NCBI GenBank assembly: GCA_943356775.1
Contig: CALRFU010000001.1
Location: 7,203-71,202, forward strand
Length of the DNA stretch: 64,000 nt
Source of the DNA: Candidatus Nomurabacteria bacterium
Lineage (GTDB): Bacteria; Patescibacteriota; Minisyncoccia; Phycocordibacterales; UBA2100
Direction: 5' to 3'
The notes under the pieces are model-generated. The model was not told where the DNA came from. It was given only the letters and a program-made list of their open reading frames with translations, and did no database searches. Shown piece after piece: positions 7,420 through 11,343 of this stretch (its first letter is position 1; each line of letters starts with the position of its first letter). A program made the translations under genes and the position numbers.

Positions 7420-8334
7420 ATGGCAAACCTGAAAAGCATAAAATCAAAAATATTCTCGTATAAAAAGACGGGGACGGTGACGCATGCGATGGAAGCGGTC
7501 TCTGCGGTCAAGATGCGTAAGGGCCAAGAGCGCGCGCTTTCCGCCCGCGCGTATGCGGCCGCGGCACTTTCGGTACTTGAGCGCCTCTCCGGTACTGCCG
7601 ACATTGCCCGGCATCCGCTTATGCAAGAGAGGGAGGGGAAAACCGCCGTCATCGTCGTCACGAGCGACAAGGGACTCGCCGGCGCACTCAACAGCGGCGT
7701 TATCCGCAAAGTAGAGGCGGAGCTTCGTGAAAGGAATTTAAGAATCGAAGATGTTGTGGTCTACGCATTTGGGCGGCGTGGTGGTGAATATTTCACATCC
7801 CGCGGATATACGGTAGACAGCATTCAGACAAACGTAAGCGACGCAATTTCGGAAAGTGAAATGTCCGAAATGACCAAGGCGGTGCTCGGTCGCTCTGACG
7901 TCGCTTCCGTCATTGTCGGGTATCAGAATTTCGTTTCAACGTTCGAGCAGGCTCCCACGGTGCGGCAAATTGTGCCGATTCGCCCCGAGACGATGAAAGA
8001 AATTGTCGCAGGTATCCGCCCGGCAAAGGGTAAGTACGCTCCCGCCGCCGCAGAGGCTTCGGCTGAAGCAAAGCCCGTTGCCTACACCATCGAACCGGAC
8101 GCGGATTCTGTACTCTCCGTACTCTTGCCGAAACTCCTCAGCATCGCCGTATTCCATGCGCTGCTCGAAACAAAAGCTTCCGAACACTCAGCCCGCATGG
8201 TCGCGATGAAGAGCGCGACAGACAAAGCACGCGACATGGCCAAAGGCCTCACGCGAACATTCAACAAAGTCCGTCAGGCGGCAATCACACGCGAAGTTTC
8301 GGAGATAACATCCGGTATTGAAGCGATGAAATGA
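7420..8334 (+). CDS. atpG: F-type ATP synthase gamma subunit
   Basis: N-terminal IKSKIFSYKKT.ITHAMEAVSAVKMRK and C-terminal NKVRQAAITREVSEI helix typical of gamma. Confidence 0.9.
   Translation: MANLKSIKSKIFSYKKTGTVTHAMEAVSAVKMRKGQERALSARAYAAAALSVLERLSGTADIARHPLMQEREGKTAVIVVTSDKGLAGALNSGVIRKVEAELRERNLRIEDVVVYAFGRRGGEYFTSRGYTVDSIQTNVSDAISESEMSEMTKAVLGRSDVASVIVGYQNFVSTFEQAPTVRQIVPIRPETMKEIVAGIRPAKGKYAPAAAEASAEAKPVAYTIEPDADSVLSVLLPKLLSIAVFHALLETKASEHSARMVAMKSATDKARDMAKGLTRTFNKVRQAAITREVSEITSGIEAMK
8284..8330 (+). repeat. 47-nt direct repeat, copy 1 (last 15 codons of atpG)
   Basis: ATCACACGCGAAGTTTCGGAGATAACATCCGGTATTGAAGCGATGAA is identical to 9280..9326. Confidence 0.9.
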
Positions 8335-8337
8335 TGT

Positions 8338-8772
8338 ATGAAAGAAGAACCTGAAAACCCGAATGTTCGTCAGCTAGACGACAGACGGACTGTAAACCGT
8401 CTCGTTACTCTTGGAGAAGTCAGTGAAATCGCGGAACTTCTTAATTCAGCAGTTGTATCTGTTCTGGAAAAAGAAAAAAGAGAAGCTGAAATAAAAGAAA
8501 TCGTTGCACGGATCGGTGAAATGGGCGTCGGTGCCGAAAATAAGTCAATTTTTGAAACACTCGAGAATATAAACCTTATTACGTCCACTATTGCTGCACG
8601 CGAAAATGCCTCGATACCGGAAAAACGTGTTGCCGTTGGTCTTAAAGAGCTTGTTGCGGCGTTGGCGGTAACGCCCAAAGATCAGACTACCCAAGATACC
8701 GTTGAATTTTTACGCGCTCGTCTCGAGACGATTCAATGGTATGCGACGCGTAAAGACGGGCATACAAAATAA
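8338..8772 (+). CDS. Hypothetical protein (acidic, helical), cargo gene 1 inside atp operon
   Basis: 144-aa ORF directly after the atpG stop, in the same orientation as the operon. No recognisable motif. Confidence 0.4.
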   Translation: MKEEPENPNVRQLDDRRTVNRLVTLGEVSEIAELLNSAVVSVLEKEKREAEIKEIVARIGEMGVGAENKSIFETLENINLITSTIAARENASIPEKRVAVGLKELVAALAVTPKDQTTQDTVEFLRARLETIQWYATRKDGHTK

Positions 8773-8773
8773 C

Positions 8774-9226
8774 ATGAAGGAAGCTGTAGAGAAGATTGGT
8801 GCCAAGTATGAGCAGGCTATCAATGCCGCAACTGCGTCGCTGCTCGTTGAACTCTCCGAATCTCTTAATGTAATTATGGACACACTTCGGAAAACGCTGA
8901 ATCCACCGCCTGACGAAGTCTTTGTATCGCAGTTTGAGGAGCAGGTATTAGGTGTCATCGCACAAGCCTTTCAGGCGGCGTTGACGGACTGTGTCTCGAG
9001 CTTGAAACCACCAAAAATTAGACGGAGCAATGATGCCTTTTCGACCGCGGAAAAGAACCTCATCGAGGTAACGGTGGGACGTTTTCAGTCATGGAAATCA
9101 GATAATTTGAAGGAGGAAACAGGCGGGATCGCTGTGGTACTCAAAAAACCAGAATATCGAGACGAGGTTACGGCAATTCTCGCTCGCCATTTGAATGATG
9201 CTAGAAAGACTCTCCAAAGTTTGTAG
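8774..9226 (+). CDS. Hypothetical protein, cargo gene 2 inside atp operon
   Basis: 150-aa ORF from internal Met 8774, one nucleotide after the stop of the previous ORF. Predicted helical, no recognisable motif. Confidence 0.4.
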   Translation: MKEAVEKIGAKYEQAINAATASLLVELSESLNVIMDTLRKTLNPPPDEVFVSQFEEQVLGVIAQAFQAALTDCVSSLKPPKIRRSNDAFSTAEKNLIEVTVGRFQSWKSDNLKEETGGIAVVLKKPEYRDEVTAILARHLNDARKTLQSL

Positions 9227-9267
9227 ACATTGAAAATCTCCACATTACACGATAAAGTAGTGCACAT

Positions 9268-9330
9268 ATGAAAGGCACCATCACACGCGAAGTTTCGGAG
9301 ATAACATCCGGTATTGAAGCGATGAAGTAG
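9268..9330 (+). other. Chimeric 20-codon mini-ORF: atpD 5' head fused to atpG 3' tail (recombination junction)
   Basis: The ORF reads ATGAAAGGCACCATCAC|ACGCGAAG...GCGATGAAGTAG, encoding MKGTIT|REVSEITSGIEAMK*. Its first part matches the atpD start (ATGTCAAAAGGCACCATCAC, 9964..9983). The rest is the exact 47-nt atpG tail repeat. Confidence 0.8.
9280..9326 (+). repeat. 47-nt direct repeat, copy 2 (duplicate of atpG 3' end)
   Basis: Identical to 8284..8330. The stop codon changes from TGA to TAG. Confidence 0.9.
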
Positions 9331-9335
9331 CTCGT

Positions 9336-9926
9336 ATGCGCGAGCTTTTGATTGCTACGGGGAATTCGGGTAAGCTCACTGAAATGCTCGCGATACTTTC
9401 CGGTGTACCGTTTACGGTCCTTACGCTATCCGATGTGAATGCTGGAGGAGATGTCGAAGAGACCGGGGAGACACTCGAAGAGAACGCGATTCTGAAAGCA
9501 AAGACGTACGGCACGCGGACGGGCAAGCTCACCATCTCAGAAGATACAGGTTTGGAAGTGGACGCACTTGGTGGGGCGCCCGGGGTTCGCAGTGCTCGAT
9601 ATGCGCAGGGGAGCGACGATGATAGGAATCAAAAATTACTCGCCGAACTGAAAGATGTCCCTGAAGAGAGGCGCGGAGCGCAATTCCGTACCGTCGCGGC
9701 CCTGTATGACCCAATTGCGGATATCCTTCATACATCCGAAGGTATTTGTCGGGGCAGCATCATCCATGAAGGAAGGGGAGAGCACGGTTTCGGATACTCC
9801 CCGCTCTTTCTAGTTTCGCAGGGGAAGACTTTCGCAGAACTCGACGCACATACCCGAAATGACCTCAGTCACCGTGGCCAGGCCATACGGAAAATCAGGG
9901 ATGTTCTCCTTGCTGATTTCACGTAG
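9336..9926 (+). CDS. rdgB: Non-canonical purine NTP pyrophosphatase (Ham1/RdgB/ITPase family)
   Basis: N-terminal [14 protein letters not shown], plus the conserved [21 protein letters not shown] and FGYSPLF blocks. Confidence 0.85.
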
Positions 9927-9963
9927 TCTAGTATTATTCAGACATTCATTTTTTGTATTCTTT

Positions 9964-11343
9964 ATGTCAAAAGGCACCATCACTCAAATTATCGGACCGG
10001 TCGTTGACGTTCGTTTCGATACCGGCCTCCCGCCCATCAAGAACGCGCTCCACGTCAAACACGGCAAAGACACCCTGACACTCGAAGTCGCGCAGCACCT
10101 CGGACAGAATCGCGCGCGCTGCATCGCGATGCAGGACACCGCAGGTCTCGCGCGTAACGCAGAAGTGACCGATACGGGAGCACCCATCTCGGTACCTGTC
10201 GGCGATGTAGCGCTCGGTAGAATGTTCAACGTTATCGGCGAGCCAATCGACGGCATCGCTGATGTACCCAAAGATTCCAAGCGTCTTCCGATTCACCGCG
10301 ACCCACCGGCTTTCATACGTCAGTCGACCAAAGCAGAATTGTTTGAAACAGGCATCAAGGCAATCGACCTTTTGGCACCATTCATAAAGGGAGGTAAGGC
10401 GGGGCTCTTCGGTGGAGCAGGCGTCGGTAAGACCGTGCTCATTCAGGAATTGATACACAACGTCGCATCCGAGCACGGAGGATATTCCGTATTCGCGGGA
10501 GTAGGAGAGCGCGTACGTGAAGGCAACGACCTCTATCACGAAATGAAAGATTCAGGTGTGCTCGATAAGACCGCGCTCGTATTCGGCCAGATGAATGAAG
10601 TGCCGGGCGCACGCGCACGTGTCGCGCTCTCAGGACTCACGATGGCGGAAGCGTTCCGCGACGAAGGCGGAAAGGACGTACTCTTCTTCATGGACAACGT
10701 ATTCCGCTTCGTACAAGCCGGTTCTGAAGTGTCATCGCTTCTTGGTCGCGTACCGTCAGCGGTGGGGTACCAGCCGACCTTGGCGGAGGAGATGGGAGTT
10801 CTCCAAGAGCGCATTACCTCGACCACTGAAGGTTCCATCACCTCGGTGCAGGCAATCTATGTGCCGGCCGACGATGCCACAGACCCAGCACCTGCGACCA
10901 AATTCCCGCATCTCGACTCAACCATCGTGCTCGACCGCGGGCTCGCCGCGCTCGGTATCTATCCGGCCATTTCTCCGCTTGATTCCGGCTCCACGGCACT
11001 TACGCCTGAGATTGTCGGAGAAGAGCACTACCGCGTAGCCAACGAGACGCGCCGCGTACTCCAGCGCTACAAAGACCTCCAAGACATCATCGCTATTCTC
11101 GGTATCGAAGAGCTCTCCGAAGAAGACAAGAAGCTTGTCTATCGCGCCCGCAAAATTCAACGTTTCCTCTCGCAGCCGTTTTCGGTTGCCGAGGCGTTTA
11201 CGGGTGCCAAGGGAAAGTACGTTTCTCTCGCAGACACTGTGCGCAGCTTTGCAGAAATTCTCGACGGCAAGCACGATGCTCAGAACGAACAGGCATTTTA
11301 TATGAAAGGGAGCGTCAATGAGGTTACAGGTTCCAAGGAATAG
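9964..11343 (+). CDS. atpD: F-type ATP synthase beta subunit
   Basis: Start [17 protein letters not shown]-loop [11 protein letters not shown]. Conserved DNVFRF and the DELSEEDK block. Confidence 0.95.

Follow-up and report, generated by a model that had tools for sequence, protein, structure and literature searches.

Phage 21 and the element e14 integrate into the 3' end of the Escherichia coli gene icd and supply a replacement 3' end, in a reaction in which an integrase acts on a fixed core site and tens of kb are brought in. A related outcome is found in the ATP synthase operon of a Candidatus Nomurabacteria bacterium, on a stretch of 64,000 nucleotides (GenBank assembly GCA_943356775.1, contig CALRFU010000001.1, positions 7,203 to 71,202; hereafter the window), where two orphan cargo genes, c1 and c2, lie behind the F1 gamma-subunit gene atpG and are followed by a second copy of the atpG 3' end that is fused to a fragment of the start of atpD, the F1 beta-subunit gene. 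As with phage 21 and e14, the target gene is intact, its displaced end lies downstream, and the differences between gene ends are mostly synonymous; the cases described here differ in having no integrase, variable boundaries, and inserts of about 0.3-1.5 kb. A second described system is Campbell-type insertion-duplication, in which direct repeats of the homologous segment flank the insert, one repeat retains the ancestral downstream context, and the insert needs no recombinase gene. In E. coli, 56 of 60 clones had 109-950 bp locus duplications flanking the insert, produced by a single crossover of recircularised molecules, and true homology-facilitated illegitimate recombination yielded deletions (PMC3240628). 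Campbell-type features are present at our locus as flanking repeats that agree at 47 of 47 positions, a downstream copy (copy 2) that is continuous with ancestral rdgB, and a closure joint between non-adjacent sequences; what differs is the short homology of 47 nt, a circle that we infer, and a probable origin from chromosomal DNA of a relative rather than from a plasmid. An original prediction, made from the letters of this stretch, had read the arrangement as a recombination scar in which an atpD head was joined to an atpG tail at ATCAC, and the comparative evidence supports this reading. We consider it highly probable that the scar results from a gain of foreign cargo in which one joint was made by homology and the other by microhomology. 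The insertion is recent and species-specific; its mechanism is of a known type, and its host and location are unusual.

The details of the structure were as predicted (Table 1; coordinates without a locus label refer to the window, and L001, L009, L067 and the like are labels for related loci). A repeat search confirmed the exact duplication of the atpG tail as a 47-nt direct repeat of 100% identity with an offset of 996 nt, which is the longest exact repeat within the window. After copy 1, which ends the working atpG, the sequence continues with AAA TGA, and after copy 2 with AAG TAG; the peptide identity (...EAMK) extends one codon past the 47 nt, and both copies encode ITREVSEITSGIEAMK up to the stop. 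The C-terminal AtpG peptide RQAAITREVSEITSGIEAMK is almost invariant among Kaiserbacteria. Directly 5' of copy 2 lies ATGAAAGGCACC, in which the claimed match to the atpD head was recovered: the 14-mer AAAGGCACCATCAC occurs at just two sites of the window, 9271 and 9970, the latter at the atpD start, with a chance expectation of 0.01 matches. The match comprises 14-17 nt and is fused in frame to copy 2. Its final five nucleotides, ATCAC, form the microhomology joint with the atpG tail, and it is at this pentamer that head and tail meet in the closure joint of the insert. The resulting 20-codon mini-ORF begins with MKGTIT, and an MKGTITQ head is natural in atpD of L043. The two genes between the tail copies, predicted to be unannotatable, are present as tightly packed ORFs with no Pfam family above threshold, and the position of rdgB between copy 2 and atpD was verified with PF01725, as were atpG, atpD and atpC with their own Pfam families.

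The displacement of gene ends is also known from the C-terminal regions of rhs, CDI and T6SS genes, where a new 3' end and linked genes arrive via homology and the old end is orphaned downstream, and where circular intermediates or one-sided recombination have been proposed (PMC2935791; PMC5361080). A displaced 3' fragment downstream of its own gene is likewise present here (copy 2 and, further along the operon, a copy of the atpC end). The target at our locus is a housekeeping ATP synthase, and no C-terminus is diversified, as the new and the old end encode the same peptide. No toxin-immunity logic was found for c1 and c2, and one related cassette carries a PemK-like toxin.

The original prediction had asked for a collapsed repeat or misassembly to be excluded. 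An artefact, by repeat collapse or by the joining of two strains into a chimera, might be suspected as the assemblies are short-read metagenomes and Logan unitigs break within the repeat. However, the same gene order was found on all contigs with exact AtpG (17), cargo 1 (11) or RdgB (23), which amount to more than 20 contigs from varied samples and assemblers. The long assembled loci L001-L008, which to judge by their record names may be assemblies with k=141, contain the whole repeat with unique DNA on each side, and over 7420-11700 the window shares 99.0-99.9% identity with eight related loci. In one strain, L001, there is a copy-specific single-nucleotide polymorphism (SNP), G>A at 8301, in copy 1 only. 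That Logan unitigs end inside the repeat is expected for a true repeat exceeding their k-mer, and a 1009-nt unitig bounded by the repeat fits a circle and the chromosomal form alike. A k-mer chimera of two strain types needs long shared k-mers and is therefore not possible at a joint that shares only 5 nt. The constant arrangement and the copy-specific SNP show that the structure is genuine, and the chance of an artefact is negligible.

The ancestral state was deduced from 59 Kaiserbacteria loci obtained by a scan of species-representative genomes. AtpG homologues carry the names Candidatus Kaiserbacteria or Paceibacterota, and the bacterium of the window was taken as an uncultured member of the Kaiserbacteria. 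The comparison with relatives that the original prediction had suggested gave a clear answer: in L068 and L069, the closest relatives found (AtpG 92% and 90% identical, DNA about 81-85%), the order is atpG-rdgB-NUDIX-atpD-atpC-geneB, with rdgB directly after atpG and without the cargo. Copy 2 reads on with AAG TAG CTCGT ATGCGCGAGCTTTTGAT, which is the atpG-to-rdgB junction of L017 (TAA TGCTCGT ATGCGCGAGCTTTTGATA), L033 (TAG CTCGT ATGCGCGAA), L050 and L067, and positions 9272-9712 are collinear with the atpG tail and rdgB of L068. As the junction of copy 2 with rdgB is that of the relatives, copy 2 is the displaced original atpG end, and copy 2 together with rdgB is, judged by these alignments, the ancestral atpG-rdgB junction. 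The present 3' end of atpG is one that arrived with the insert, or a hybrid.

The original prediction also stressed that gamma-beta co-transcription has to read through about 1.6 kb of non-ATPase genes. Such genes do intervene, but this is normal in Kaiserbacteria and not special to the event, since the slot contents of the 59 loci demonstrate that non-ATPase genes between gamma and beta are the rule in the family. The distance between atpG and atpD ranges from 38-41 nt (L014, L028, L032, L045) up to 1.9 kb (1899 nt, L020). A NUDIX hydrolase (29 instances) and/or RdgB (22) are the usual content; in addition, there are numerous small lineage-specific ORFs, mostly directly after atpG, including those for a 23S-rRNA-IVP four-helix-bundle protein and a PemK/MazF-like toxin. 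More than 20 unrelated ORF clusters besides NUDIX and RdgB occupy the slot. From these sequences, the atpG-atpD gap in Kaiserbacteria is best described as a hypervariable gene slot. Slots of this type are known as minimal mobile elements in Neisseria, where genes between conserved neighbours are swapped by transformation and homologous recombination (PMC3082526, PMC1538595). The atpG-atpD slot shares with them the unrelated cassettes, the conserved flanks and the lack of mobility genes; in contrast, a clean replacement leaves no scar, whereas at our locus the crossover would have occurred outside the flank and the cargo was added to the existing content. The one hint at an exchange by transformation and flank homology in Kaiserbacteria comes from mosaic identities such as those of L067.

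In L067, AtpA (94%) and AtpD (95%) are far more similar to the window than AtpG (61%), RdgB (73%) and AtpC (76%), and L054 is mosaic as well; this would reflect either a much higher rate of evolution in atpG than in the adjacent genes or a swap of operon segments between lineages. With NUDIX and RdgB/Ham1, two nucleotide-pool 'house-cleaning' enzymes are habitually located inside the F1 part of the atp operon (L009-L067), and no published account of NUDIX or RdgB embedded there was found. A PF05635 gene (23S-rRNA-intervening-sequence-type four-helix bundle) fills the slot in L010 (7934-8290) and L044 (7946-8302), and the gap of L053 contains a 95-nt tandem repeat (1254-1448).

The claim of foreign cargo was borne out by the absence of c1 and c2 from the nearest relatives, by their low GC content and by the lack of homologues. 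A word-indexed search of 5.8 billion proteins gave no homologue of c1 or c2 beyond their own 90% clusters, and an exhaustive phmmer search of 1.84 billion representatives with c2 returned c2 alone. Neither protein has a credible Pfam, PHROG or PADLOC family or a tblastn match in the 59 related loci; c1 has no phage or viral relative by tblastn against phages and a scan of viral contigs; and Foldseek searches of the PDB with low-confidence structures predicted from the single sequences gave no match with E below 1. Weak c1 matches to PADLOC CARF2 (18 bits) and phrog_16834 were judged to be noise. Membership of the cargo in a small helical post-atpG family (clusters C2, C6 and C42) was rejected, as the profile score of 1.4 bits is within the range of shuffled decoys. 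The GC content of the insert is 0.453 compared to 0.528 for the window, placing it in the lowest 0.9% of equal-sized windows. Among the strains, the cargo has four nonsynonymous and one synonymous polymorphic codons (c1 alone 3:1), compared to 4:32 for atpG, rdgB and atpD together (Fisher p = 0.003). Low GC and the relaxed polymorphism pattern thus indicate that the cargo is compositionally foreign and weakly constrained. Another stretch with a GC content as low as that of the cargo is located at 43850-46400 and contains two large reverse-strand ORFs (43127-44632 and 44666-46531).

The route of insertion can be deduced from the boundaries. A duplicated flanking segment, a right boundary at the end of the gene homology, and an inner closure joint together point to a single crossover with a circular molecule. 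In the course of events that we propose, the ancestor would have had the order atpG-rdgB-atpD, and the incoming DNA would have been a 996-bp segment from a very close relative with a slot of the type atpG-c1-c2-atpD, consisting of the atpG tail, c1, c2, the 41-nt spacer and 17 nt from the start of an atpD gene. The atpG tail and the atpD head have ATCAC in common, and through this 5-nt microhomology the segment would have become circular; the circle would have integrated by one homologous, Campbell-type crossover inside the tail. Such an event would leave atpG intact with an unchanged C-terminus, place the cargo in sense orientation within the operon, and move the original end of atpG downstream by 996 nt, still joined to rdgB and now fused in frame to the atpD start fragment, giving the 20-codon ORF. 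We favour this 996-bp circle, closed at ATCAC and inserted by a single crossover in the atpG tail, with moderate confidence; the published model for rhs C-terminal displacement likewise involves circular intermediates (PMC2935791).

Neither of the repeat partners departs from the resident sequence: the tail agrees with it at 47/47 positions and the atpD-head core at 14/14. In other Kaiserbacteria species, 4-14 of the 47 tail positions differ, all synonymously, and most of them have AAAGGAACC at the atpD head instead of AAAGGCACC. The identity of both partners therefore argues for a very close relative as the donor, and this qualifies the predicted foreign origin: the cargo is atypical, but the donor was probably not a distant genome. 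Differences on the donor side are small, namely AAA TGA instead of AAG TAG, the loss of the TCA codon (MKGTIT), and an unrelated 41-nt spacer before the head. In the simplest reading of these sequences, the donor was of the same species or a sister strain with the slot atpG-c1-c2-atpD. Besides the circle, the original prediction had offered a second route, a tandem duplication in situ from the atpG tail to the atpD head via ATCAC, followed by replacement of the rdgB of the first unit by c1-c2. It would yield exactly the observed head-to-tail joint between the two ATCAC pentamers, and identity of both repeat partners to the resident sequence would be natural. However, it needs at least one further event in which only 14-17 nt of homology would be available on the right-hand side, the 41 nt before the head fragment do not resemble the region upstream of resident atpD, the head fragment has no TCA codon, and copy 1 ends with AAA TGA and not AAG TAG. 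The many synonymous differences in the other scars described below would also be unexpected for a duplication in situ. We thus regard the tandem route, with its extra steps, as improbable and the circle with a single crossover as the favoured one of the two.

Several points weigh against a recent circle from a close relative. The identity of the copies could reflect gene conversion after insertion; a continuous homogenisation of the copies is contradicted by the SNP in L001. All contigs with exact AtpG, cargo 1 or RdgB have the composite arrangement, and a search among them gave neither a circle nor an empty site nor a donor-type allele (atpG-c1-c2-atpD). The donor type would have the junction GCACATATGAAAGGCACCATCACTCAAATTATCGG, and the empty site the atpG body with CGTCAGGCGGCAATCAC and GATGAAGTAGCTCGTATGCGCG. 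The cargo has no relative anywhere in the protein searches, and a homology of 47 nt is short for recombination of the RecA type. The ATG in the head fragment lines up with that of atpD only if a 3-nt gap (TCA) is allowed, and the firm head homology is thus 14 nt, 5 of which belong to the repeat. Finally, the product by itself is also compatible with a linear one-sided route, which is considered after the other scars.

The operon has a second scar, in which the 3' part of atpC, 11497-11686, is repeated at 13031-13201 (self-blastn, families D2 and D3, in blocks of 95% and 90% identity), and between the two parts lies gene A, which does not follow atpC in L068, L009 and L067 and whose best relative, in L028, has 58% amino acid identity. 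The downstream atpC copy lacks the 18-nt insertion of the working atpC, like L068 and L009, and, just as in relatives, leads into TGTTTTCAAC and gene B. A recent tandem duplication of atpC with genes A and B was rejected, as the identity of A and B, about 28%, is far below the 79-95% of the tails, and as the two genes have separate orthologues (L028 for one; L067 and L009 for the other). The junction spacers of the two scars, 9227-9267 and 12919-13030, have no match in the relatives. Genes A and B are distant paralogues with a muramidase-like region (PHROG endolysin and tape-measure lysin matches, 1e-10 to 1e-13) and a shared C-terminal domain, and genes of this kind follow atpC in most Kaiserbacteria loci.

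Displaced gene ends recur in Kaiserbacteria. A scan of 716 kb of Kaiserbacteria DNA for 20-residue gene ends displaced by at most 3 kb downstream of ORFs of at least 120 aa gave seven cases, and none in the upstream and reverse-complement controls; the atpC scar of the window is the eighth. The genes concerned are atpG (window, L021, L038), atpB (L021, L042), atpC (window), ychF (L042) and a fasciclin-domain gene (L036). The eight inserts of about 0.3-1.5 kb contain orphan ORFs, genes for small membrane proteins, an NYN-domain gene and a PemK-like toxin gene; those of L042, L036 and atpB in L021 measure 0.3-0.9 kb, and two inserted genes are on the opposite strand. In the three scars that were checked against relatives (atpG and atpC of the window, atpG of L038), it is always the downstream copy that keeps the ancestral context. 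Within the homologous cores, all 17 codons that differ between the copies are synonymous (17:0), including an AGT/TCG serine switch, as would be expected if the copies had evolved as working gene ends in separate lineages before they were joined. The pattern argues against relic drift after duplication in situ and against target-site duplication.

These cases bear on the main rival to the circle, which is linear one-sided (homology-facilitated illegitimate) recombination. A linear fragment from a relative with atpG-c1-c2-atpD would have been anchored by homology in atpG, and its other end, inside the atpD head, would have made an illegitimate joint at ATCAC with the resident atpG tail, at a point upstream of where the anchor ends. 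The 5-nt microhomology is within the 3-10 bp range reported for this process (PMC3240628), natural competence with integration of DNA through homologous recombination is established for Saccharibacteria, which also belong to the Patescibacteria (PMC10633639), the Kaiserbacteria locus L021 contains a DprA gene, and a one-sided process has been proposed for displaced Vibrio T6SS modules (PMC5361080). On the other hand, the reported products usually delete recipient DNA of approximately insert size rather than duplicating the anchor, whereas recipient sequence is duplicated in all eight scars with no known loss, and rdgB and atpD were both kept at our locus. The missing recipient deletion makes this route rather unlikely in our view.

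The recurrence also allows site-specific integration of a cassette to be judged, with a recombinase acting in trans on an integron-like cassette or on a cis-mobilisable element that has the atpG 3' end in its attachment site. Integrase attachment sites typically show direct repeats into which the 3' end of the target gene is incorporated, and the same PemK-like cassette is located at the atpG end in two distant genomes. However, among the called genes within about 10 kb on each side of the insert (metabolic and atp genes and genes for a muramidase-like protein, RNHCP and a P-type ATPase), there is no integrase, transposase or mobile-element gene, and the cargo matches no family. Unlike integrase elements and integron cassettes, the inserts have no recombinase in or beside them and no common core site: five different target genes were used, and the boundaries vary, with ATCAC in the window, Gln/Ala codons in L021 and L038, and others in atpB, atpC, ychF and the fasciclin-domain gene. 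The right boundary always coincides with the end of the gene homology, as homologous recombination predicts. Site-specific integration is therefore very improbable.

The PemK/MazF-like toxin gene between the atpG tail copies of L021 (7859-8488) and L038 (7861-8473) has no visible antitoxin gene. AtpG is only 69% identical between these two loci, the PemK-like cassette has 66% protein identity, and close relatives are without it; a metagenome scan for further cassettes of this type returned just the organism of L021. Either the cassette moves together with a tail copy, or it was lost many times. As the cassette occurs in two distant genomes, each time with a copy 2 like the tail of its own host, cassettes with two copies of a conserved gene end might constitute a recombinase-free mobile system in Kaiserbacteria and perhaps other Patescibacteria, with the displaced tail as a portable homology arm. 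This idea is tentative, and we rate it as rather doubtful. If it is true, a cassette could enter any genome with the conserved gene by ordinary homologous recombination, land without damage in a transcribed operon, and be lost precisely by recombination between the repeats. In L021, atpG and its cassette are not followed by atpD; DprA (on the reverse strand) and SerRS come next, and the atp operon appears to be split.

The 20-codon mini-ORF is most likely a by-product without a function of its own. According to the original prediction, clade-wide conservation of the mini-ORF would mark a genuine small gene; the arrangement is limited to one species, and the mini-ORF is absent from all relatives except for the analogous cases L021 (MNTYTQAAITREVSEITSGIEAMR) and L038 (MNYPHAAITREVSEITSGMEAMK), which are homologous to each other. 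A functional mini-ORF, either as a leader that couples rdgB to an upstream ORF or as a source of a free gamma C-terminal peptide, would be compatible with origin as a scar. It is in frame with an ATG, its stop is 5 nt before the rdgB ATG as in ancestral atpG and could preserve translational coupling, and no polymorphism was found in it among 9 strains. Furthermore, the L021 and L038 analogues are intact and each resembles the AtpG tail of its own host (GIEAMR versus GMEAMK), and a small hairpin overlaps the rdgB start. However, one joint in three would be in frame by chance, the fold of 9262-9360 is no more stable than that of shuffled sequences (z = -1.5), the L021 mini-ORF has no following gene on its strand, and only a single species is concerned, making a function quite improbable. 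The hairpin, AGCTCGTATGCGCGAGCT at 9329-9346, encloses the mini-ORF stop and the rdgB start codon and recurs with the same sequence at the atpG-to-rdgB junction of L017; the minimum-energy fold of its 99-nt context does not include it. The spacer 9227-9267 contains one promoter-like hexamer pair, and promoter and terminator scans of the region gave counts not above the shuffled expectation.

The genomes of Patescibacteria are tiny and contain few recognisable mobile elements, and gene gain in these bacteria is poorly documented. The atpG scar is a dated, base-resolved record of one such gain that includes the joint, the homology used and the ancestral state. Given the recurrence of this architecture, Kaiserbacteria may regularly gain genes without a recombinase, by recombination over short homologies with small DNA circles or fragments derived from close relatives. 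The atpG-atpD gap is a hypervariable slot in an essential operon in which orphan genes would obtain transcription for free. For annotation, short ORFs that copy the end of an upstream gene should be taken as relics and not as genes.

Table 1. Features of the atpG-atpD and atpC scars in the window, and displaced gene ends in three related loci.
Feature	Position	Strand	Evidence or remark
atpG, F1 gamma subunit, 304 aa, intact	7420..8334	+	PF00231, E 6e-76
Tail copy 1, final 47 nt of working atpG	8284..8330	+	Repeat family D4, 100% identity
c1, cargo gene 1, 144 aa, orphan, predicted all-helical	8338..8772	+	AF2 pLDDT 47; GC 0.44, GC3 0.35
c2, cargo gene 2, 150 aa, orphan, predicted all-helical	8774..9226	+	AF2 pLDDT 61
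Spacer, 41 nt, probably arrived with the cargo; putative donor region upstream of atpD	9227..9267	+	Matches neither resident atpD upstream region nor relatives
atpD-head fragment ATGAAAGGCACCATCAC	9268..9284	+	14-nt core identical to 9970-9983
Chimeric mini-ORF, MKGTIT joined to REVSEITSGIEAMK, 20 codons and stop	9268..9330	+	Sequence; full translation MKGTITREVSEITSGIEAMK
Tail copy 2, displaced original atpG end	9280..9326	+	Downstream junction to rdgB as in relatives
rdgB, Ham1-family NTP pyrophosphatase, 196 aa, ancestral slot occupant	9336..9926	+	PF01725, E 7.5e-58
atpD, F1 beta subunit, 459 aa, start ATGTCAAAAGGCACCATCAC (source type of head fragment)	9964..11343	+	PF00006, PF02874, PF22919
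atpC, epsilon subunit, 86 aa	11410..11670	+	PF02823; 3' part from 11497 duplicated downstream, similarity to 11686
Gene A, 396 aa, cargo of the second scar, muramidase-like	11728..12918	+	PHROG endolysin-type match, 1e-10
Displaced original atpC 3' part, to stop codon	13031..13186	+	95% and 90% identical blocks
Gene B, 622 aa, ancestral atpC neighbour	13190..15058	+	Directly after atpC in L067, L054, L018, L068
Displaced ends of atpB and ychF	L042 2560-2681/3292-3412 and 13821-13895/14371-14445		
Displaced end of fasciclin-domain gene	L036 2180-2231/3109-3160		
Displaced end of atpB	L021 2971-3015/3586-3630		

Further observations concern strain variation in the operon. Four independent contigs (L005-L008) begin, at their position 1, with one and the same base inside atpA, at about 5870 of the window, which points to strain variation or a repeat at which assembly breaks time and again. 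SNPs between strains are clustered at eight successive third-codon positions of atpD (10989-11010), and a further dense block is located at 11586-11603, in the region of the 18-nt insertion of atpC; both clusters resemble short recombination tracts between strains. In L059, a sequence of roughly 100 nt is found after atpD and again after atpC (10149-10251 and 10507-10608).

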